A stretch of 64,000 bases of DNA. It comes from Alphaproteobacteria bacterium. Lineage in GTDB: Bacteria > Pseudomonadota > Alphaproteobacteria > Sphingomonadales > Sphingomonadaceae. The translations under genes were made by a program, and so were the position numbers. Location: positions 757 through 64,756 of the forward strand of contig QBLU01000012.1 of assembly GCA_003241875.1 (NCBI GenBank), read 5' to 3'. Every line of letters begins with the position of its first letter. Positions within the stretch are counted from its first letter, which is position 1. The notes under the pieces are model-generated. The model saw only the letters and a program-made list of their open reading frames with translations. It was not told the origin of the DNA and made no database searches. This document shows, piece after piece, positions 9,963 through 20,437 of this stretch.

Positions 9963-10484
9963 ATGGCACGCGGTGTGAAGTTCTGGCACGGCGACATGGT
10001 CGCCAACACGGTGTTCCCGCTCGAAAACAACTACAGCCAGGCCAACAAGGCCGACCAGGGCATCTGCACGGCCGCGGCGCTGGCCTGGTGTCGCGCCTCG
10101 CTGAAGCTCGGCCGCTTCGTGAACAGCTGGGCGGAGATCGGCACCACCGTCCACAACCTCAACATCGTCATGGCAACGCTGCGGCATCTCGATGCCAATC
10201 CGGTGGCGCAATGCGAGCTTGCCGGGGTCCGGGCGCTGGGGGGTGATCGCACCTGCGCCGGCATCGAGGAGGCGATGACCAACATCAAGCCGTCCGAATA
10301 CGGGATCGGCCTGTTCTGGAACAGCTATCACACGATGGCGTTCGGCTACAGCCACCTGCAGAAGGACTTTTTCGACATGAACTATGGGCTGTTCAGGTCG
10401 AAATACACCGCCGGCATCAAGGCCAAGGTGCAGGAACTCTATGGCGACGACATCATCGGCTACCGCCTCATCGGCAAGCTGTAG
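9963..10484 (+). CDS. Small stand-alone YopT/AvrPphB-like (peptidase C58) papain-fold cysteine protease
   Basis: Predicted triad C35 (QGICTAAALAW), H123 (YHTMAF), D138 (FFDMNYGLF); His-Asp spacing of 15 and the FFDxNxG motif match the C58 signature. Confidence 0.72.
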   Translation: MARGVKFWHGDMVANTVFPLENNYSQANKADQGICTAAALAWCRASLKLGRFVNSWAEIGTTVHNLNIVMATLRHLDANPVAQCELAGVRALGGDRTCAGIEEAMTNIKPSEYGIGLFWNSYHTMAFGYSHLQKDFFDMNYGLFRSKYTAGIKAKVQELYGDDIIGYRLIGKL

Positions 10485-10519
10485 CGCCGCCGGGCGTCTG
10501 CCGCCGGCGGCGCGACGCC

Positions 10520-12469
10520 CTACAGCTGCATCGCCTCCAGGCTGTCGAGCGGAATGAAACGCGGGGCCGCGGGCTCGGCGCCTTCCTGCGGGCGGAACAG
10601 CGGGTCGGCGGCGGCATAGGCCGAAAAATCATGGCCGGTGGCATCGGCGAGGTCGGTCACCGCGATCTGGAAGGTGCGATATTCGCCGAGCACGATGCCC
10701 TCCATCGCCTCGGTGCGGCTGCGGCGTTCAAGCAGGTCGCGGATCAGCTGGCCCTGGCTGAGCAGATAGGCGGTGGCGCGCAATCTGGTGCCGGTCTCGT
10801 CGAGCGTCGCCACCAGCTTCCAGTATTCGAGCGGCACGGTGGCGCCGTCGATGACCGGGTCGTCGGGGCCCAGGATCGGCCCGGTGAACACCGAGGCGAG
10901 GAAGCCGCCGGTGCGGGCATTGTCGAGGATGTAGTTTTCCAGCCCCTGCCACAGCAGCTTGCCCTGGTTGAGCTGCGAATGCTGCGGCGCGGCGTTGACG
11001 TAATGGAAGGTGTCGTCGTTGGCGAGCTGCGCCGATCCGCCCCAATTGGGGTCCTCGCGGCGCACCAGATGGCCGCGGTCGATCTCGGCATCGGCAAAGT
11101 TGGTCGACCCGAGCTGGATGGCGGCGGGGATGCGCAGGTCGGCGAACCACTTGTCGCGGCCGCGCTTGATGCGCACCGTCTTCTGGCCGTCGATGTTGAC
11201 CGCGGTCATCAGCGGCACCTTGGCTTCGGCGGAATATTTGACGCCGAAATGGGTGTAGCGCAGCTCGCCCGGCTCCTTGGGCTTGTCGGACGGCCTGGCA
11301 AGGCCGGTGGCGAGCGCCGGCGCCAGTTTTGGCCACGGCGTCGCGACCTTGCCCTTGCCGAGGAACTTGGTTGCAAAGCCCTTGCGGCCTTTGAAGAAAT
11401 CGGCGGCATGGCTGCCGTCGGCGAGGCTTTCGGTGGTCGCTTCAGCGCGGGCGCCACCGCCCGGCACCGCGACCGCCCTGCCCTTGAGCAACGCCTTCAG
11501 CGTCTCGACGCCGACGGCGCTGTTACCCTGGCCGAAGACGCCGGCGAAATGCAGGCCGACGACCTTGCCCGATTCCAGGCTGATCAGCGGCGATCCCGAA
11601 TTGCCGCCGAGGCTCGTGCAATCGTGCATCAGCAGCGTCTGGCCGGTCAGCGCCTGGGTGACGCGGCCCGGCGCCAGGCGCTTCACGTCATACAGGTCGC
11701 GGAAATATTTCTCCTGGGCGCCGGGATCGTTGCGGGAGTCGCGCGCCGGATAGCCGATCAGCGTCACCAGCTCGTCGAAGCCTGCTTCCTTGTCGGCGAG
11801 CGGCAGCGGCGACGGCTTGACCGGCGCGGTCGTCGCGACGCGCAGCAGCGCGCAATCGGCGGCGAGGTCGTCGGCGAGATATTCGATGGCGACGATCTGC
11901 ACGGTGTGGCTGGCACTGCCGCCGCTGCTGCCGTCTTCCTCGCGGAAATCGATGGCGATGCCTTGCCGGGCGCCGCCGGGGCTGCGCAGGAACACGCCGC
12001 TGCCGTTGGCGGCGCGCTGCGCGACCAGCTTGGCGACGTGGCGATTGGTGATGATGATGTCGCCGGTGGCGCGGCGATCGACGACCCAGCCGGTGCCGCC
12101 CCAGCGCATCGTCGAATTGACGAATTCGACGCGGCCGACCGACGGGATGTATTTCTGCACGCCGATGATCTTGGCATCGGCGCCGGGCAGGTCGGGCAGC
12201 GGCTCGAGCACGACCTGGTCGTTGCGGATCAGCAGCGGCGGCCGCCCGGTCAGCCGCACGATGGCTTCCAGCGCCGGCAGCGGCAGCAGGCTTTCGAGCT
12301 CGGCGGCGTCGCGTCCGGTGGTCGTCTCGATCTCGACCGGCAGCTCGGCGGCGACGGCGGGCGGCACGTTGCCGGCGGCGAGCCGGGCATTCACCGCCTC
12401 CACCATCTTGGGGGTCAACAGCCCGCGCAGGGTTTCGCGGCGTTCGGTGGTGTCGGCGGCGTCAGACAT
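10520..12469 (-). CDS. Trypsin-like serine protease fused to DNA/RNA non-specific (EndoG/NucA-type) endonuclease
   Basis: Protease triad ITNRHVA / ADCALL / GGNSGSP; nuclease DRGHLVRR...ANDDTFHYVNAAPQH..LNQG..WQGLE. Start at ATG 12469 with AGGAG RBS, overlapping the upstream stop; 649 aa. Confidence 0.9.
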   Translation of the reverse strand: MSDAADTTERRETLRGLLTPKMVEAVNARLAAGNVPPAVAAELPVEIETTTGRDAAELESLLPLPALEAIVRLTGRPPLLIRNDQVVLEPLPDLPGADAKIIGVQKYIPSVGRVEFVNSTMRWGGTGWVVDRRATGDIIITNRHVAKLVAQRAANGSGVFLRSPGGARQGIAIDFREEDGSSGGSASHTVQIVAIEYLADDLAADCALLRVATTAPVKPSPLPLADKEAGFDELVTLIGYPARDSRNDPGAQEKYFRDLYDVKRLAPGRVTQALTGQTLLMHDCTSLGGNSGSPLISLESGKVVGLHFAGVFGQGNSAVGVETLKALLKGRAVAVPGGGARAEATTESLADGSHAADFFKGRKGFATKFLGKGKVATPWPKLAPALATGLARPSDKPKEPGELRYTHFGVKYSAEAKVPLMTAVNIDGQKTVRIKRGRDKWFADLRIPAAIQLGSTNFADAEIDRGHLVRREDPNWGGSAQLANDDTFHYVNAAPQHSQLNQGKLLWQGLENYILDNARTGGFLASVFTGPILGPDDPVIDGATVPLEYWKLVATLDETGTRLRATAYLLSQGQLIRDLLERRSRTEAMEGIVLGEYRTFQIAVTDLADATGHDFSAYAAADPLFRPQEGAEPAAPRFIPLDSLEAMQL

Positions 12470-15400
12470 GGGACGTGACTCCTGTGAGGATGGCGAGCGG
12501 GGGGACAAAGGCCGAGGGAATGTCGTGGTCGAGCAGGGCGCCGGCGCGGGCGAGCGGGTCGGGCAGGGCGGCGACGATGCCGAGCACCCGGGTGTGGCGG
12601 CGTTGCAGCCGGGACAGCAGCCCGGGGCCGTCGCCGGCGGGATCCCACAGCGCCAGCTGCCGCATCGCCCAGTCGGCGGGATCGTCGAAATCGGCGAGTT
12701 TCTGGACGCGGCGCCGGATGATGCTGTCGGCGCCGCCGCCGCGCCCGTCCCCGCCCACATCCGGGCCGAGCCAGCCCGGCGGCGGCGTGTCGTACGACCA
12801 GCGGCCGGCGACGGTGCGGCGCCAGCGTTCGGCGGCGGCGGCGAGGGTGCCGAGATCGGGGTCGCGGTGGCGCCAGGCCTCGGCGCCGGCCCATTCGGCG
12901 AACAGGCCGAGCCCGGCGATGCCGGCGATGGGGTTGCCGGCGACCGGGCCGAGCCCGAGCGGCGAGCCCGAAAACAGCCCGCCGGCCTGGGCGAGCCGGG
13001 CGTCGGCGGCGCGCGCCGCGTCGATCAGCCGGTCGTTGCCGCGCAGCACGGCGAGGTTGGCGGCGATGATCGGATAGGGCGACAGCGCCACCAGCATCTG
13101 CGGGTCGTTCCATTCGATCGCCGCCGCGGATACCAGCCCGCGCGCGCCGAGCCGTTCGCGCACGACGCCAAAGGCATGGGCGGTCGCCGGCGCCTGGCTG
13201 CGGCGGCCGTCGGGCGCGGCGATCCAGGTGTCGAGCGCGGCCGCCACCGCGTCGCCGTCCTTCGACGACCACAGCGGCTCCTGGCGATGGCCATTAGCGG
13301 CGAGCACAAAGGCCAGCGCCCCCTGGCGGGCAAGCGGCCCGGCGTTGCGCATCGCCTCGGCGATCAGCCGGTCGATGCCAGGCAGGGCGAACATGCGCAG
13401 CAGCCGCGGCCGGGTGAATTCGGACCGGATCTCCAGCCGGGCGATGGCGAGCTGCAACGGGAGGCCGAAGACTTCGCCATCGTCGCGGACCAGCCGGTCA
13501 CGCTCGGCGAACATGCGCCGGGCGCGGTGCCAGCGGCCCGAGCGCCAGTAGAAGGCGCGGATGGCCATCGCCGCCGGCTGGCGCGGATCGAGGCCGCCGG
13601 CGGCCGCCATCTGGTCGACGACGAACTGGCCCTCGGCCCAATCCTCGCGGTCGATGAGGGTGAGGACCTCGGCCGCCAGCGCGGCGTCGTCGACCGTTGG
13701 TGCGGCGGCTTCGAGGACGCTGTCGCCGCCCTTGCGCAGCTTCGACGACCGGCGCCCGGCGGCGCCGGCAACGAGATCCTGCGCCACCGGCGGCAGCTCG
13801 GCGAGCATTGCCGGCTCGAACTGCTGCGCCACTGCGGTGGGGATCGCCGGGCGGGCCGGGCGAAAGCGCATCAGCTGTAGCCGGTGATAGGCGGCATCGA
13901 CGTCGGAGCGGGGGTCGCTTTGCCGCGCGAACCAGGCGGCGGCGGCGGCATCGACCCTTTCGCACAGCCTCGGCTGGTCGCGGTAGAGCAGGGGCAGCAG
14001 GATGGCGCGCATGTCGCTGCGATGGATGACGAAATCGCGGGCGACGGGATCGCGCTGGACGAGCCACAACTGGCCCGCCAGCGCGTTGAACAGCGCTTCG
14101 GCCCGGCCCGCGGCGAGGCGCGGCATGCCGAGCGCCGGCGCCAGCACATCGCCGAGGAAGCCGGCGCTGATCCGGCGTGCGAGCAGGCCGGGGTGGGCGA
14201 GCCGGCGCAATTCGGGGTCGTCGATCCGCGACAGCAGGATGCGGTAGAGGAACGCCGCCGCCACATCCTTGTCGATCGCGCCCTGCGGCAGTTCGCCGAC
14301 GCCATGGTCGCGGACCACGGTGGCGGCGAGGCGCAGCACCAGCGGGTTGCCGTCGGCGAGGTTGGCGATGGTCGCATGCGCCGCCGCCGGCACCTCGAGC
14401 CGGGTCAGCAACGCCTCGGTCGCCGGCGCATCGAGGCCGTCGAGCGGCACCGCCAGCCCGACCCGGCCGGGAGCGCTGTCGAGCGCGGCGCCGCGACCGG
14501 CGGCGAGCACGGCGAGCGGCCGCAGCCCGGCCGACAGCAGCGTGTCGAGCCAGCGGAACAGCCGCTCGGGATGTTCCTCGCCGCGGGCGCGCAGCACTTC
14601 GACGGTGTCGAGCACCAGCAGCACCGGCCGCCCGGAGGCGCGCACCGCGTCGCCGATCGCCGCGGCGAATTCGGGCGGCACGCTGCCGCGGCTGCTGTTG
14701 CCATAGCTTTCCTCGCCGCGGGTGACGCTGGCGGCGCGCAGCCGGGCGTCGAGCACCGGCTTGCCGGCGTCGCCGAGCCGGTCGGCGACCTGGCGCGCCA
14801 GCTCCATCGTCAGCCCGAGCAGGTCGTTGACGTCGAGGCCGGCACGGTCGAAATCGAGCCGCACGACGATGCACCCGTTGGCATCGGCGACGCTCGCATT
14901 TCCGGCTTCCGCAACACCGGCATCGCCGACGCGGCCGGTGACTTCCTCCAGCAGCGTCGATTTGCCGATGCCGGGGTTGCCGGCGATGTAGGCGGCGCGC
15001 ACCGGCAGCGCGACGAGCGGCTTTTCGAGCCAGGCGATCAGCGCCGCCGTCTCGCCTTCGCGCCCGAAGAAACCGCGCGCCTCGAATCCGCGGCGCCGCG
15101 CCTGGCGGTCATGGCGGGAGAGCGCCTGGCGGGCGTCGACGAGGCGGGCGCCGGCGGGGGCCGGCGGGCCGGCGCGGTCGAGCGCGGCGACGATGCGCTC
15201 GATGAGCGGGCGATCGGGCGTCGGCGCCGCGAGCGCCTGGGCGATGGCCGCGTCGGTGAAGGCGCCGTCCCCGGCCAGCGCCGCCAGCAGGTCGGCGGCG
15301 GGCAGGTCGGGGTCCTGGCTGCGGCGCTCGGCAACGGCGGCGAGCAGCTCGGCGCGGGTCGTCAGCTGCCGGTCGAGCACGAAGCGCCGTTCGCCGCTGC

Positions 15401-15611
15401 GGATCAGCCAGCGGGTGCCCCGGGGGCTGCCGGTGTCGAGATCGGTGTCGCAGGCGGCGGCGAGCGCCGAGGCGACCTGGGTGGTCAACCCCGCCCCACT
15501 GACAGCAGCCGCACGCAGCGCGGCGATCGGCTCGAACGGGCCGGACAGCGCCGCATAGCGTTTGGCGCGGATGACATAGGGGACGACATCTGGATCGAGC
15601 GGGCCGCTCAT
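12462..15611 (-). CDS. STAND-class (AAA_16-like) P-loop NTPase, 1049 aa
   Basis: GFFGREGE pre-Walker motif; Walker A GNPGIGKS; Walker B LLVLDTVEVL; GNPLVLRLAA (GxP); helical, partly TPR-like C-terminal region. Start at ATG 15611 in an ATGA overlap with the upstream stop. Confidence 0.85.
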   Translation of the reverse strand: MSGPLDPDVVPYVIRAKRYAALSGPFEPIAALRAAAVSGAGLTTQVASALAAACDTDLDTGSPRGTRWLIRSGERRFVLDRQLTTRAELLAAVAERRSQDPDLPAADLLAALAGDGAFTDAAIAQALAAPTPDRPLIERIVAALDRAGPPAPAGARLVDARQALSRHDRQARRRGFEARGFFGREGETAALIAWLEKPLVALPVRAAYIAGNPGIGKSTLLEEVTGRVGDAGVAEAGNASVADANGCIVVRLDFDRAGLDVNDLLGLTMELARQVADRLGDAGKPVLDARLRAASVTRGEESYGNSSRGSVPPEFAAAIGDAVRASGRPVLLVLDTVEVLRARGEEHPERLFRWLDTLLSAGLRPLAVLAAGRGAALDSAPGRVGLAVPLDGLDAPATEALLTRLEVPAAAHATIANLADGNPLVLRLAATVVRDHGVGELPQGAIDKDVAAAFLYRILLSRIDDPELRRLAHPGLLARRISAGFLGDVLAPALGMPRLAAGRAEALFNALAGQLWLVQRDPVARDFVIHRSDMRAILLPLLYRDQPRLCERVDAAAAAWFARQSDPRSDVDAAYHRLQLMRFRPARPAIPTAVAQQFEPAMLAELPPVAQDLVAGAAGRRSSKLRKGGDSVLEAAAPTVDDAALAAEVLTLIDREDWAEGQFVVDQMAAAGGLDPRQPAAMAIRAFYWRSGRWHRARRMFAERDRLVRDDGEVFGLPLQLAIARLEIRSEFTRPRLLRMFALPGIDRLIAEAMRNAGPLARQGALAFVLAANGHRQEPLWSSKDGDAVAAALDTWIAAPDGRRSQAPATAHAFGVVRERLGARGLVSAAAIEWNDPQMLVALSPYPIIAANLAVLRGNDRLIDAARAADARLAQAGGLFSGSPLGLGPVAGNPIAGIAGLGLFAEWAGAEAWRHRDPDLGTLAAAAERWRRTVAGRWSYDTPPPGWLGPDVGGDGRGGGADSIIRRRVQKLADFDDPADWAMRQLALWDPAGDGPGLLSRLQRRHTRVLGIVAALPDPLARAGALLDHDIPSAFVPPLAILTGVTSHV

Positions 15612-17380
15612 ATGACGGCCTTGAACATGGCGCGGACGGCCGGGCGCAGGCGCTCGGCGACCTGGCGGGCGGCCCAGGGGCTGTAGATGCCGTTGACTTC
15701 GTCGAGGCCGGCGAGGCCCATCTGCACCAGCTCGGCGACGCGTTCGGCCGAGGGCGACTTGCCCGCCGCCGCCGCCGCATCGGCGAGGAACAGCCGCACG
15801 TCGCTTTCGCCGAAGCCGGTGACATAGTCGGTCATCAGGCCGGGCGCGCCGATGTCGGGCGGGTTGGGCGGCGTCTGGAATTCGAGGCCGGGGATGGCCA
15901 CCGCCTCGAAGCCGGCGACGACGAGGCGCAAATTGGGCAGTTTCAGCGCCTGGTCGATGAAGCCTTCGAGTTCGGCGCGCATGGCATCGCCAAAGGCGAT
16001 CGCCGGATGGTCGATGAACAGCCAGAGCTGGCGGCCGACCGCGGCGGCCGTGGCGTCGAGCGCGGCGGCGGCGCGGCGGCCGCGATCGGCGCCGACGGCT
16101 TCGGGTGCGCTCTGTCCGGCGGCGACGCCCGGGCGATCCTCGATGGCGGCGCATTCGAAGCCGACCGCGGCGGCGCGGCGCAGGATGTCGTTGGCCAGGT
16201 CGGGGATCAGCGTTTCGAAGCTGATGCGGCACTGCCGCGTGTCGGGGCTGCGCGCCGTCATGCGGTCGAGCATGGCGAAGGAAAAGGCGAGGCCGGCGAG
16301 ATTGCCCGCCGCATCGGCGCGCTTGACGCGGATGCCGCGCACCCGGCCGTTGCCGCGGGCCAGCGCAAAGGCCTCGAAAAACGACTGGCGGCCGATGACG
16401 AACTCGCCATCGGGGGTGCCGTCGAGCGACCACATCCGCGGCGGTGCCAGGTCGGTGGTAACGACCGGCAGGATCCTGTCGTAGAATTTCGCCGTCGGCA
16501 CCAGCCGCCCGCCGTCGCGCCAGCCCTTGCCCTGGTGGATGCCGGCAAGGGTCAGCGTCGCATCGAAGCAGCCGCCGCCCGACGAGCCGCCACGGGTTTC
16601 GACGCTGTGGCCCCAGCGGCTGGTCAGGCGCGGGATCTTGGCCAGGCTGCCGATGCCGATGCCCTTGTCCTCGCCGTCGGGATAATGGACGACGATGACG
16701 GCGGCGCGGCGGCTGTAGGCGCCGGGTTTTGTCGGCAGCGGTGCCGATCCCATCAGCGCGCCGGCGGGGCGGGCGAGCCGGATGATGGCATAGTCGTTGT
16801 TGTCGCCGAACAGCGTGTCGTCGCGCGGCAGCCGGCTGGCGGCCTCGTCGGCGGTGGTCGGCGAGGCGACCAGCGGCGGCATCACCGCGTCGATCGAGCG
16901 GCCGTCGGACAGCAGCACGGTGACCTTAGACCAGGGTTCGGCGACCATCGTCGGGGTCGCGGCGAGGACATGGAAGGCGGTCAGCACCGTCGTCGGGCCG
17001 ACCAGCACGCCCGATCCCATGACGACGCCGTCGCGCAGGATGCGGCAGCGAAAGGCGGCGGCGCGGGCGAGGAAGGCGGCGGCCTTGACCGGATCGAGGT
17101 TCGATGCGGCGAGGTCCACCGCGCCGAACGCGGCGCCGCCGAAATCGATGGCGACACCGCGCACGCTGAGCGCCCGGGCAAAGGAATCGACGAGGTTGCG
17201 GCCCTGCAGCTGTTCGACCCAGAAGTCGCCGGGCGGCCGCCCGAACATCTGTGCCGCCGCGGTCAGCCCCGCCGCCTCCAGCCGCGGCCCGGTCGCATCG
17301 AGCATGACGGCGCCGAGCGCATCGGCGGCGACATCGGGGTGCGAATCGATCGCCGCGGCAATGTCGGCGGCCTCCCACAT
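15608..17380 (-). CDS. Trypsin-like serine protease with N-terminal helical domain and C-terminal degenerate (inactive) STAND-like domain
   Basis: GSGVLVG..VLTAFHV / NDYAIIRL / GGSSGGGCF triad intact. The C-terminal FVIGRQSF...LWLFIDHP follows STAND topology but has no GK[ST] Walker A. Confidence 0.78.
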   Translation of the reverse strand: MWEAADIAAAIDSHPDVAADALGAVMLDATGPRLEAAGLTAAAQMFGRPPGDFWVEQLQGRNLVDSFARALSVRGVAIDFGGAAFGAVDLAASNLDPVKAAAFLARAAAFRCRILRDGVVMGSGVLVGPTTVLTAFHVLAATPTMVAEPWSKVTVLLSDGRSIDAVMPPLVASPTTADEAASRLPRDDTLFGDNNDYAIIRLARPAGALMGSAPLPTKPGAYSRRAAVIVVHYPDGEDKGIGIGSLAKIPRLTSRWGHSVETRGGSSGGGCFDATLTLAGIHQGKGWRDGGRLVPTAKFYDRILPVVTTDLAPPRMWSLDGTPDGEFVIGRQSFFEAFALARGNGRVRGIRVKRADAAGNLAGLAFSFAMLDRMTARSPDTRQCRISFETLIPDLANDILRRAAAVGFECAAIEDRPGVAAGQSAPEAVGADRGRRAAAALDATAAAVGRQLWLFIDHPAIAFGDAMRAELEGFIDQALKLPNLRLVVAGFEAVAIPGLEFQTPPNPPDIGAPGLMTDYVTGFGESDVRLFLADAAAAAGKSPSAERVAELVQMGLAGLDEVNGIYSPWAARQVAERLRPAVRAMFKAVI

Positions 17381-17386
17381 CGCCGG

Positions 17387-18628
17387 TCAGGCATTCCAAG
17401 CCAGCGGGAATCGTTCGGGAACGCCGCTGCGCAATTCGACCGGCGCGGTGGGATGCAGGCCGGGCAGCAGCAGCAGTTGCCGGACGATCTCGCCGAGCAT
17501 CGGCCGGGCGATGGCGCGGCCGAGGCATTCGTGGATGCCCTGGCCGAAGGTGAAATTGTCGCCCTGCGCGCGGTGCGGGTCGAAACGGGTCGGATCGGGG
17601 AAGCTCGCCGGGTCGGACATGGCGCTGTGGGTCATCGCCAGCACGGTGGTGCCGGGCGGGATCATCTGCGCGTGCGGCGTACCGCCGGCGACCTGGGTGG
17701 CGCGGTGGCAGGTGCGGAAGAAATAGGGGAAGGCCGGGCGGAAGCGCAGCGCCTCCAGCGCGACGCCGTCGATGGCTTCGGGCGGGGCGGTGCGGGCGAG
17801 GTGCTGCGCCTCGGCGAGGGCTTCGGGGCGCGAGAACAGCTCCGCCATGACATTGTTGACGCAGTGGTTGGTCGTCTCGACGGCACCGATCAGCAGCCCG
17901 CCGGCGTTGAACAGCACCTTCTTGACGCCGAACTTGACGCCATCGGAAAAGGAAATCTGCAGCAGCCGCGTGATCGGATCGTCACCGCCGAGCCCCAGCT
18001 TCACCGCGATCGAGCGGCGCAGCACCAGCCGGCCGATGAACAGGCCAAGCCGGATGCTGCTGCGTTCGCGCCCGGCGGTGATCTCCGCCGATCGTGCCGC
18101 GCTCTGGCCGTCGAACGGCTGGTTGTGGAAGGCGTCCTGCTGGTTCCAGTAGGACCATTCGATAAGGTCGGCGGGGTCCTGGCCGTCGAGGCCGAAGAAC
18201 TGCTGCACCATGTCGACCGGCACCTGGCGGCTGAGCGCGGCGGGCACGTCGATCTGGCCGTTGGCCGCCATCAGCAGATTGGCGGTGCGATCGGCGACCC
18301 AGCTGCGGATTTCGGGAATCTGCTCGAAATCGAGCACCGCCTTCATGATCGATTTTTCGCGCCAGTGGTTGGCGGTATCGTCCTGCGCCATGAAGTAATC
18401 GCCCTGCTTGGGCTTGTAGAGATCGACGCCGAAATCGGCGTGGCGGCGCAGCACCAGGGCGCAATCGGCGTGGCGGAAGACCAGGGTCAGCTCGGGCAGC
18501 ACGATCACCGGCCGCTGTTCGCGGACCTCGGCAAAGAACGGGTGGGGTTCCTGCCGCATCCAGCCGCGCACCAGCGGCCAGCGTTGGGCCGCCGGCGTGG
18601 CGTCGAGCCGTTCGAGATAGCCTGTCAT
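17387..18628 (-). CDS. Cytochrome P450
   Basis: I-helix GLLIGAVETT; ExxR (EALR); FDPHR; heme motif FGQGIHECLG. Confidence 0.93.
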   Translation of the reverse strand: MTGYLERLDATPAAQRWPLVRGWMRQEPHPFFAEVREQRPVIVLPELTLVFRHADCALVLRRHADFGVDLYKPKQGDYFMAQDDTANHWREKSIMKAVLDFEQIPEIRSWVADRTANLLMAANGQIDVPAALSRQVPVDMVQQFFGLDGQDPADLIEWSYWNQQDAFHNQPFDGQSAARSAEITAGRERSSIRLGLFIGRLVLRRSIAVKLGLGGDDPITRLLQISFSDGVKFGVKKVLFNAGGLLIGAVETTNHCVNNVMAELFSRPEALAEAQHLARTAPPEAIDGVALEALRFRPAFPYFFRTCHRATQVAGGTPHAQMIPPGTTVLAMTHSAMSDPASFPDPTRFDPHRAQGDNFTFGQGIHECLGRAIARPMLGEIVRQLLLLPGLHPTAPVELRSGVPERFPLAWNA

Positions 18629-18646: not shown

Positions 18647-20437
18647 CTAGAGCGATTTCAGATATTCGAGCAGCGCCTGGCGCTGGGCTTCGGTGAGCTT
18701 GGCCACCCCGTATTCATGGCCTTCGCTGCCGTTGCCGGGGATCGCGAAGCCGTCGGCGGCCTGGGTGGCAAAGCGGAAGCTGTTGCCGGGCGCCGTGGCT
18801 TCCGTGCGATAGCCGACCTTGACGGGATCGTACTCGCGGGTGCCCATCATGAACGCCTTGGGCCGCTGCGCCGCCGGCAGCAGCAGGTCGTACAGCGTTG
18901 GCACCGAGCCGTTGTGGAGGAAGGGCGCCGTCGCCCAGATGCCGTCCAATGGCCGCGCCTTGTAGGCCATGTGCGGGCTGCCGGACTTGTAGCAGGCGTC
19001 GAGGACCAGCGGCCGCATGTCGGGCGCCTCCTCGATGACGACGCGCGGGGCACCGCCGCCGCCGAAGAACACCTTGGCGGTCTGGCCGATGATCTGGCCC
19101 TTCTTGCCGATCAGCGCGCCCTTGACGGTGGTTTCCAGCATCTCGGCGATCGGAGCTTCGGCGCCGAACTTTTCGCCGCTGCCGATATAGCCCTTGGTGG
19201 TGCCCTGCAGATTGCCGGTGGCGGATTTGTAGGTGATGGCGTTGCACGCCATCCATGGGTCGGTGGCGTTCGGCCCGGGTTTCAGCGGGATCATCGCCGC
19301 CTTCTGGAATTCGCCCGGGTCCTTCTTGTGGCAGCCCTCGCAATCGGCGGCGAACAGCGCCTTGCCGGCGGCGACCTTGGCCGGGTCGAGCGCGCCGAAG
19401 TTGGCCGGCCAGGCCGGCGACTTCAAGGAGACGAGCTGGGTTTCGAGGCGGATGAGATTGTCGGCCTGGACGCTGGATTTGTAGCCGCCGAGCCCGCCGC
19501 CCGGTGTCACCGTGATGTCGCCGAAGACGCCGATGACCTCGCCGGCGTTGCGGCCGAGCGCGCCGTAATCGAGGTAGCGGTTGCCGCCCAGCGACAGCCG
19601 CTGGTTCTGGGCGATGCCGTTCCACTGCAGCTTGTCGAAGCGGTGGATGTCCCAGATGTGCGGATAGCTGACCGGGGCGTCGGCGGGGTTGCGGGTCGGG
19701 CTGGCGGCACCGGTGAACAGCGCCACCTTGTTGAAGATGTGGCCAAAGGCGTCGACGCGGCCATAGCCATAGCGCAGCGGCGTCTTGTTCATGTCCTCGA
19801 CGCGGTCTTCCCAGGCGAGCAGCCTGGCCAGCGCGGCGCGCAGCAGGGTGCGGTTGCCGGGCGCGTCCTTGCTGCCGAGCGCCGCCTTGGCGAAACGGTC
19901 CCATTTTTCGGAGCCGTCGGGGGCGTTGACGGTGGCGCGCACGGCAGCGTCGAGGTCCTCGACAAAGGTCTGATAATCGAACAGCGCCGGGCCGCCGTCG
20001 ACGCGCATCGCCTTGCCCTGGTAGGTCAGCTCGGCGGTGTGGCAGGCCGAACAGTTCATCCCGACCCATTTTTCCTTCGGCCCCTGGCCGGCGAACCAGC
20101 GCAGTTTCGAATTGGCGAGATTGCTGTCGTCACTGTCATCGACGACGAGTCCGATCGGCAGCCGGTCGCTGTTGGGGCGCGGCAGCAGCCGCCACTGGGC
20201 GATGGTATCGGGGCCGAGGAAGGGCTTGGCCGCGTCAGGCTGTTCGAGCGCCAGCATCCAGGCCAGCGGCATCAGCCGGGAGCCCTGCGTCGCCGAATAC
20301 CAGGCCGATTGCTGCTGCGGCGACCAGTTTTGCCAGCCGGCCTGCGGCGCCGCATTGGAATAGGAGGCACAGGCCGCGATGGTCGCAGCTGTCGATAATG
20401 TTGCCAAAGCCTTGAGTATCAAAACGCGGTCGACCAT
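18647..20437 (-). CDS. Di-heme cytochrome c lipoprotein, RoxA/MauG/CcP-like
   Basis: Lipobox TIAAC; two CxxCH motifs (CSACH, CEGCH); YGYGRVDAFGHIFN; YKARPLDGIWATAPFLHNGSVPTLYDLL; GGGGAG RBS. Confidence 0.85.
   Translation of the reverse strand: MVDRVLILKALATLSTAATIAACASYSNAAPQAGWQNWSPQQQSAWYSATQGSRLMPLAWMLALEQPDAAKPFLGPDTIAQWRLLPRPNSDRLPIGLVVDDSDDSNLANSKLRWFAGQGPKEKWVGMNCSACHTAELTYQGKAMRVDGGPALFDYQTFVEDLDAAVRATVNAPDGSEKWDRFAKAALGSKDAPGNRTLLRAALARLLAWEDRVEDMNKTPLRYGYGRVDAFGHIFNKVALFTGAASPTRNPADAPVSYPHIWDIHRFDKLQWNGIAQNQRLSLGGNRYLDYGALGRNAGEVIGVFGDITVTPGGGLGGYKSSVQADNLIRLETQLVSLKSPAWPANFGALDPAKVAAGKALFAADCEGCHKKDPGEFQKAAMIPLKPGPNATDPWMACNAITYKSATGNLQGTTKGYIGSGEKFGAEAPIAEMLETTVKGALIGKKGQIIGQTAKVFFGGGGAPRVVIEEAPDMRPLVLDACYKSGSPHMAYKARPLDGIWATAPFLHNGSVPTLYDLLLPAAQRPKAFMMGTREYDPVKVGYRTEATAPGNSFRFATQAADGFAIPGNGSEGHEYGVAKLTEAQRQALLEYLKSL

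Follow-up and report, generated by a model that had tools for sequence, protein, structure and literature searches.

The LypABC cassette of Caulobacter crescentus and the CARD-NLR anti-phage systems are the closest described counterparts of the locus reported here. The locus occupies positions 10,520 to 17,380 of a 64,000-nucleotide stretch (the window) of contig QBLU01000012.1, from a Sphingomonadaceae genome deposited as Alphaproteobacteria bacterium (assembly GCA_003241875.1). It consists of three genes, A, B and C, and is very probably a LypABC-type CARD-NLR cassette, the bacterial counterpart of an apoptosome or inflammasome. Systems of this kind have already been described, and the Walker-less ATPase domain of LypA, which corresponds to the C-terminal domain of A, has also already been published (PMC13236601).

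LypABC of C. crescentus was described by Banks et al. (Nat Microbiol 2026; PMC13236601). LypA contains a CARD-like domain, a trypsin domain and an ATPase-like domain without Walker A and B motifs. LypB has an N-terminal domain, an Orc1-like AAA+ domain with Walker A and B motifs and TPR-like helical repeats, and LypC combines a trypsin domain with an endonuclease (PMC13236601). LypA and LypB interact, with the CARD contacting LypB's N-terminal domain, and LypB lacking this domain is stable but inactive (PMC13236601, section 9). No interaction is reported for the pseudo-ATPase domain of LypA. Both protease active sites and the Walker A and B motifs of LypB are needed, overexpression is toxic, and the cassette is required for lysis mediated by the gene transfer agent (GTA) in C. 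crescentus (PMC13236601). The same study names C. vibrioides, C. zeae and C. radicis as lypABC carriers.

The CARD-NLR anti-phage systems contain a CARD-bearing trypsin-like protease, an NLR-like STAND protein, a second protease and an exchangeable effector (Wein et al., PMC10312443). The effector is a gasdermin in Lysobacter and an endonuclease or phospholipase elsewhere; the examples include the gasdermin operon of Lysobacter enzymogenes and systems of Pedobacter and Azospirillum (PMC10312443). The CARD-protease of Lysobacter also carries an ATPase-like domain, which superposes on that of LypA with a root-mean-square deviation of 1.22 Å (PMC13236601, Extended Data Fig. 3).

Gene layout and relationship to LypABC

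The three genes and the domains of A are as follows.

15608-17380, minus strand: gene A (LypA-like), 590 amino acids; a helical domain at the N-terminus, then a trypsin-like protease and an AAA+ domain without Walker motifs
12462-15611, minus strand: gene B (LypB-like), 1049 amino acids; N-terminal helical domain (about residues 1-175), active STAND/Orc1-like AAA+ NOD and long helical C-terminal region
10520-12469, minus strand: gene C (LypC-like), 649 amino acids; N-terminal region, trypsin-like protease, linker and Endonuclease_NS/NucA nuclease
17147-17380, minus strand: A N-terminal domain, residues 1-78; five helices in the AlphaFold2 (AF2) model
16466-17053, minus strand: A trypsin-like serine protease, residues ~110-305; Pfam Trypsin_2 and conserved triad
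15611-16447, minus strand: A degenerate AAA+/STAND-type NTPase domain, residues 312-590; AF2, Foldseek, hhalign and column counts

The genes are co-oriented and have a G+C content of 72-74 %, compared to about 66 % in the flanks. The stop codon of A and the start codon of B overlap as ATGA. C shares its first 8 nt with the end of B and has an AGGAG ahead of its start, and A, B and C are thus translationally coupled. A scan for promoters and terminators gave counts equal to those expected from shuffled sequence. A preliminary description of this DNA had treated A and B as a pair; its gene coordinates and lengths (590 and 1049 amino acids) are right and every motif it quoted is present. It had also seen no obvious enzymatic effector with the STAND protein, and in this it overlooked gene C, a trypsin and NucA nuclease that is fused to the STAND protein in some genomes. 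Since C is coupled to B, the system extends beyond the two genes of that description and the STAND protein has an enzymatic effector partner.

The products of all three genes are full-length homologues of those at a locus (L041) in C. vibrioides DSM 9893. The identities are 38 % for A (578 aligned residues), 40 % for B (985) and 56 % for C (642), with hidden Markov model E-values of 3e-79, 5e-238 and 4e-200, respectively. The DSM 9893 locus is assumed to be lypABC from its matching species, gene order and domain architecture, and loci of C. zeae and C. radicis were also found. The window and LypABC share the same three genes in the same order with the same architecture, and the catalytic-site residues mutated in PMC13236601 are all conserved here. 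The locus differs from LypABC in its host order (Sphingomonadales), in the 38-56 % identity and in a cytochrome P450/di-heme cytochrome pair upstream. LypABC is linked to a GTA and controlled by CdxB, whereas there is no evidence of either here. Unlike the Lysobacter CARD-NLR system, the locus has no gasdermin, its nuclease is fused to the second protease, and it has three genes instead of four.

Gene B encodes the active ATPase. Its Pfam family is AAA_16 (E = 1e-9), nSTAND1 and NACHT match it weakly, and it carries the motifs GFFGREGE, GNPGIGKST, LLVLDT and GNPL. These place the Walker A motif at G211-K217-S218, Walker B at D335 and GxP at G421-P423. The homologue collection held 59 protein clusters for A and more than 214 for B, and 72 genome loci gathered through the B (STAND) family yielded 63 A, 49 B and 60 C sequences for residue counts. 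K217, D335 and E338 are present in 49/49 B sequences and R373 in 47/49, while G421, P423 and L424 of GxP are invariant or nearly so; the earlier reading of complete Walker A/B and GxP motifs in the 1049-residue protein therefore holds across the family. Gene C matches Pfam Trypsin_2 and Endonuclease_NS, with protease residues H144, D205 and S291 and nuclease residues DRGH 464-467 and N501. All of these are found in 60/60 sequences (H144, D205, S291, R465, G466, H467 and N501) except D464, which is found in 59/60. Complete conservation at its active site suggests that the nuclease is important in most hosts. Pfam gave no match even at E = 10 for A before residue 118 and after residue 312, for the first 180 and last 570 residues of B, and for the first 118 residues of C. 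An NCBIfam scan found nothing.

The order A-B-C is kept in about 60 of the 72 loci, and the exceptions are mostly contig ends or broken frames. The proteobacterial hosts are Sphingomonadales, Caulobacterales, Rhodobacterales, Acetobacteraceae and Xanthobacter, together with Burkholderia and Pseudomonas, and thus span the Alpha-, Beta- and Gammaproteobacteria. Many hosts are actinobacterial (Kribbella, Agromyces, Microbacterium, Blastococcus, Nocardioides, Pseudarthrobacter), and the cassette also occurs in Chloroflexia. B and C are fused into proteins of about 1700 amino acids (AAA_16, Trypsin_2, Endonuclease_NS), and they are also fused at loci L025, L054 and L072. A and B are fused in proteins of 1661, 1702 and 1408 amino acids, the last with an internal deletion in its B part, and all three are fused in a protein of 2277 amino acids (P0222, P0228, P0223 and P0267, from metagenome assemblies). 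On one 43-kb contig (L075, 3001-7986) a separate C comes after an A-B fusion gene. Assembly or frameshift artefacts could underlie the A-B and A-B-C fusions. The occurrence of fusions in every combination strongly indicates that the products of the three genes work as a single machine, and the A-B fusions give indirect support for an A-B complex. The conservation of gene order across phyla, the translational coupling and the A-B and A-B-C fusions together mean that the protease and the STAND protein clearly work together.

The cassette is patchily distributed close to its host. Gene A is present in 3/25 genomes of the host's own genus and in 0/16 genomes of other genera of the order. This patchiness and the raised G+C content of the cassette fit an accessory, horizontally moving conflict system.

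Three other families of systems resemble the locus in part. The NucA-trypsin system (System 3), which is mostly alphaproteobacterial, is described as including a STAND domain that is joined to trypsin and a Death-like domain (Kaur, Burroughs, Iyer and Aravind 2020, PMC7159879, section 32). As in the window, a NucA/Endonuclease_NS nuclease occurs with several trypsin-like peptidases, the description of the fused STAND fits A, and a proteolytic cascade that releases the nuclease is predicted (PMC7159879). As far as that section's description can be compared, the fused STAND is not called inactive and is treated as an accessory component, not the core sensor (PMC7159879). The iSTAND proteins of the MoxR-vWA ternary system, as section 20 of the same paper presents them, share with A an inactive STAND-type domain and N-terminal fusions to trypsin-like, caspase-like, TIR or Death-like (EAD) domains (PMC7159879). 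This assignment was rejected because no MoxR or vWA gene adjoins the cassette. In addition, A has an active STAND protein as its partner, and no Pfam family, iSTAND or other, matches the domain. In Avs2-trypsin-MBL, oligomerisation of the STAND protein activates a trypsin-like protease, which in turn acts on a latent nuclease (bioRxiv 10.64898/2026.08.25.746987; PMC12799240). There, protease and active STAND form one protein and the nuclease has an MBL fold, whereas here the protease is separate and carries a dead AAA+ domain, and the nuclease is of the NucA/HNH type. A PADLOC scan of A and B found no match to Avs, the AVAST types 1-5.

Several observations weigh against identifying the locus as a CARD-NLR defence cassette. 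The N-terminal model of A has no PDB match below E = 4 in Foldseek, so a CARD or death fold is unconfirmed, and hhalign finds no mutual similarity among the N-terminal domains of A, B and C. The 2023 PADLOC models recognise neither A nor B, with 0 families at E <= 0.1 for B; this silence is explained by PADLOC (2023) being older than the LypABC and CARD-NLR models. PADLOC otherwise gave only a weak LmuA match on the trypsin part of A and a match of a model labelled 'nacht' to the trypsin part of C. The catalytic residues of the LypC nuclease are dispensable for lysis in Caulobacter (PMC13236601), and the nuclease may not be the lethal effector. Anti-phage activity has been shown for CARD-NLR systems, but no phage-defence phenotype has been shown for the LypABC-type sub-family. 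The cassette also adjoins metabolic-looking genes (a P450, a di-heme cytochrome c, a TonB-dependent receptor and a DUF885 gene) and no defence island. Finally, 2/72 loci lack C, those of Sphingomonas sp. Leaf67 (L007) and Sphingobium terrigena (L009).

The Leaf67 locus (10030-15250) shows a further feature. B is followed by an unannotated open reading frame (ORF) on the opposite strand and then by a pair of genes for an AAA ATPase and an S8 peptidase (subtilase), which may be an alternative effector set.

The protease and the Walker-less domain of gene A

The protease of A matches Pfam Trypsin_2 at residues 122-281 (E = 1e-12). Its triad lies in the motifs TAFHV (H137), NDYAII (D196) and GGSSGG (S266/S267), and H137, D196 and S267 are kept in 63/63 family sequences, in agreement with the intact triad reported before. 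The N-terminal 78 residues are modelled by AF2 with a pLDDT of 93-98 as helices 4-13, 15-28, 36-45, 50-60 and 64-73. A profile search of PDB sequences with this region returned spurious polyubiquitin matches only. The CARD label for the A N-terminus is a putative one, taken solely from homology to LypA.

The C-terminal domain (residues 312-590) was modelled by AF2 on a 21-sequence alignment with a pLDDT of 89 and a pTM of 0.87. In the model, a three-helix lid comes after a five-stranded beta-alpha-beta core. VIGR stands before helix 1, RVRGIRVK forms strand 1 and QLWLFIDHP forms the Walker B strand, while the loop RADAAGNLAG and the helix beginning at LAFSFAML sit at the place of the P-loop and its helix. 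The top Foldseek matches in the PDB are all AAA+/STAND-type ATPases, with E-values of 1e-4 to 1e-2 and probabilities of 0.9-1.0 but TM-scores of just 0.3-0.43. The best is the Walker-type ATPase 2qen of Pyrococcus, and the list includes Vps4, RuvBL1/2, ORC subunits and RFC, as well as the wheat NLR resistosome (rank 10) and MalT (rank 31). The P-loop fold that the preliminary description had proposed for this region was thus recovered in the model. Neither the model nor the family consensus showed a GxP motif or a winged-helix module.

The motifs FVIGRQSF (327-334), AAGNLAGLAFS (357-367) and LWLFIDHP (452-459) carry the remnants of an ATPase site, G363-L-A-F366-S367 for the P-loop and D457-H458 for Walker B. 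R331 of VIGR, in the hhGR motif that precedes the P-loop, is kept in 63/63 A sequences. The position of the Walker A Lys is F in 61/63 and Y in 2/63, but never K, and is F366 here; the absence of GK[ST] noted before thus extends to all 63, and the model bears out the likeness of LWLFIDHP to a Walker B strand. S/T follows this position in 60/63, and the preceding glycine, G363, is retained in 58/63. At the Walker B position 61/63 have D/E, and the residue after it is N, H or another, not acidic; opposite the sensor-1 Arg of B stands F, L or Y. Loss of the Walker motifs is, in the aligned sequences, a trait of the whole A family and not of this sequence alone.

The relationship of this domain to the NOD of B is distant. 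BLASTP of A against B found nothing, and hhalign with shallow alignments (21 vs 32 sequences, whole B) also found nothing, with a probability of 0.15 %. With deeper, domain-cut alignments (56 vs about 48 sequences), hhalign paired A 327-490 with B 180-372 in register with the structural model, but weakly (P = 0.0017, probability 15 %). The pairs are FVIGRQ with GFFGRE, GLAFS with GIGKS, CRISFE with VRLDFD, LWLFIDHP with VLLVLDT and LRLVVAG with LAVLAAG, so that the parallel previously drawn between FVIGRQSF and GFFGREGE reappears at this level of significance. A B-profile HMMER match on the A part of a fusion was in register but insignificant (score -3.5) and was not used as evidence. A profile search of PDB sequences with the A domain gave no real match. 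An HMMER search of 1.84 billion representative proteins with the same domain gave 134 matches; in the full-length ones it lies behind a trypsin at residues ~300-600 or in an A-B fusion, and the remainder are short fragments. No canonical ATPase is among the 134 matches; therefore the domain is confined to the A protein family. On the basis of the model, it is best described as a predicted catalytically dead AAA+ module of the STAND/Orc1-like type that diverged anciently from the NOD of B. The marginal similarity excludes a recent duplication of B.

Proposed mechanism and alternative roles

B would act as an NLR-like STAND sensor and switch that is held autoinhibited until a trigger, for instance a component of a phage or a GTA or some disturbance of the cell, leads to ATP binding and oligomerisation. 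A would be the initiator protease, tethered by its N-terminal CARD-like domain to the N-terminal domain of B, and its clustering on the B oligomer would activate the trypsin. C would be the downstream executioner with a second trypsin-like protease and a NucA-type non-specific nuclease. A proteolytic step would unleash C and lead to DNA degradation, lysis or both, either in abortive infection or, as happens in Caulobacter, to release particles. The C-terminal domain of A, dead through the change of the Walker A Lys to Phe and the loss of the second Walker B acid and the sensor-1 Arg, would be essential but non-hydrolytic. Most likely it would set the conformation of A or its self-association, or, after the recruitment of A, would come to lie next to the NOD of B. 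The architecture, fold, residue conservation, gene order, fusions and full-length homology to Caulobacter were established in this analysis, while the sequence of events in the protease cascade, the nature of the trigger and what the dead domain does are the inferred parts of the model.

The LypABC authors suggest that the C-terminal domain is a divergent nucleotide-binding sensor that gates the protease (PMC13236601). AlphaFold3 places ATP-Mg in the LypA pocket with an ipTM of 0.96, and activity is lost in the T356A/S360A/F361A mutant (PMC13236601). The last P-loop Gly, the Mg-binding S/T and the Walker B D/E are retained at the frequencies given above (58/63, 60/63 and 61/63), which speaks for this reading. 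However, no sequence has the Walker A Lys, F/L/Y stands in place of the sensor-1 Arg and the Walker B Asp is followed by N or H. The equivalents of T356 and S360 are L361 and A365 here; the former position is variable in the family (T, L, P, S, E and others) and the latter is merely small (G/A/S/P). Two of the three mutated LypA residues are therefore not conserved, which weakens the reading of the mutant as a loss of ATP contacts. The phenotype may instead reflect the invariant Phe alone (F361, equivalent to F366), that is, folding or packing. A role as a nucleotide sensor is considered somewhat unlikely, and the family alignment seems to leave two live options for the domain, a structural pseudo-ATPase or an unusual ligand pocket.

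The preliminary description had proposed that the dead STAND domain docks the protease onto the oligomerising partner. In such a scheme the domain would co-polymerise with the NOD of B by NOD-NOD stacking, comparable to the inactive subunits of ORC and RFC. The AAA+/STAND fold and the in-register alignment with the partner NOD agree with this, as does the strict association of the domain with the protease among the 134 proteins found. Selection acts strongly on the P-loop remnant G-L-x-F-[ST] and on the Walker B D/E, the A-B fusions imply a 1:1 stoichiometry, and the LypA pocket triple mutant is non-functional even though it is stably produced (PMC13236601). On the other hand, the domain resembles the NOD of B only marginally (probability 15 %, and not at all with shallower alignments). 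A has only a short helical lid and lacks the GxP and winged-helix elements used by STAND oligomers. The contact found in LypABC joins the CARD to the LypB N-terminal domain, without which LypB is inactive (PMC13236601, section 9). Docking through the dead domain is therefore unlikely and that part of the earlier proposal is probably wrong. Its broader idea, an inflammasome-like recruitment of the protease in trans, is supported by the LypA-LypB interaction (PMC13236601), with the N-terminal helical domain as the adaptor in place of the dead domain.

The cassette might also serve the release of a gene transfer agent in this organism instead of phage defence, given that LypABC is needed for GTA-mediated lysis in C. 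crescentus (PMC13236601). A cluster of RcGTA-like or siphovirus-like tail genes does exist elsewhere in the genome (contig C34:78000-97900, locus L074). It encodes Rcc01698_C + Phage-tail_3, one protein in which the TIM barrel of a non-contractile tail sheath is joined to DUF2460, and PF09931 + BR0599, as well as proteins for the tail tube, tail completion and the head-tail connector. However, PF13547 (GTA_TIM) is absent from this genome, no gene for a CdxB-like XRE repressor stands beside the operon, and the cassette is found in just 3/25 genomes of the genus. It is also common in Actinobacteria, Chloroflexia, Pseudomonas and Burkholderia, which are not known to carry RcGTA-type agents. The patchy distribution and the presence in phyla without known GTAs argue against GTA release as the general role and point to regulated cell death or defence. 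GTA release is an improbable function for the cassette here.

A more speculative arrangement makes the Walker-less domain a pre-set protomer of a protease-NLR 'resistosome'. The invariant Phe could plug the site of the Walker A Lys, and the resulting nucleotide-independent protomer would intercalate with the NOD ring of B, or cap it, on activation. The published two-hybrid data, obtained with isolated domains, would have missed such intercalation. We know of no bacterial or eukaryotic NLR for which a hetero-oligomeric protease-NLR assembly through a dead protomer has been shown. This arrangement and a separate one, in which the upstream P450 and di-heme proteins provide the trigger or an effector, are jointly given little credence, and recruitment of A through its N-terminal domain is the preferred mechanism.

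Neighbouring genes and significance

The genes around the cassette are as follows.

17387-18628, minus strand: cytochrome P450 (Pfam), with a 6-bp gap between its stop and the start of A
18647-20437, minus strand: RoxA-like di-heme cytochrome c (Pfam), upstream of the P450
6393-9593 and 20670-22814: flanking TonB-dependent receptor and DUF885 genes

The P450 and di-heme genes are syntenic with A-B-C in 5/72 loci, all of them in Sphingomonadales and in at least three genera. The five loci belong to Sandarakinorhabdus, two metagenome-assembled genomes (labelled Sphingomonadales and Alphaproteobacteria), Sphingomonas sp. GB1N7 and Sphingobium sufflavum. A di-heme orthologue is found in exactly the 3/25 genomes of the genus that have A. 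This synteny and co-occurrence mean that the five genes behave as one accessory block in this sub-clade of Sphingomonadales. Both genes are absent from the other 67 loci and are therefore not part of the general system. The P450 and the RoxA-like di-heme protein might act as an additional effector or provide a trigger linked to redox state.

The TonB-dependent receptor and DUF885 genes occur in most genomes of the genus, but where the block is absent they lie on different contigs or far apart. An empty site was sought in the genus members without the block; no simple one was found and the insertion boundaries cannot be defined.

A 173-amino-acid ORF at 9963-10484 on the plus strand, convergent on C, was considered and is not part of the system, as it has no counterpart in the 72 loci. 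It has a Peptidase_C58 match below threshold (E = 0.0035, 17.5 bits against a cut-off of 23). In the Sandarakinorhabdus locus, which is 89 % identical, other sequence replaces the 0.8-kb stretch of this C58-like ORF.

The LypABC/CARD-NLR cassette has so far been studied in Caulobacter and a few defence-system hosts, and it is seen here to be a widely shared and very uniform three-gene unit. Five catalytic centres and one systematically killed ATPase site are under selection in it. The family-wide residue pattern sharpens the question of whether the pseudo-ATPase domain of A binds nucleotide or is a structural element of the assembly. The A-B and A-B-C fusions are natural single-chain versions of the system and might ease structural work. 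The main value of the finding is the correct annotation of an accessory cell-death system that includes a third gene, C.

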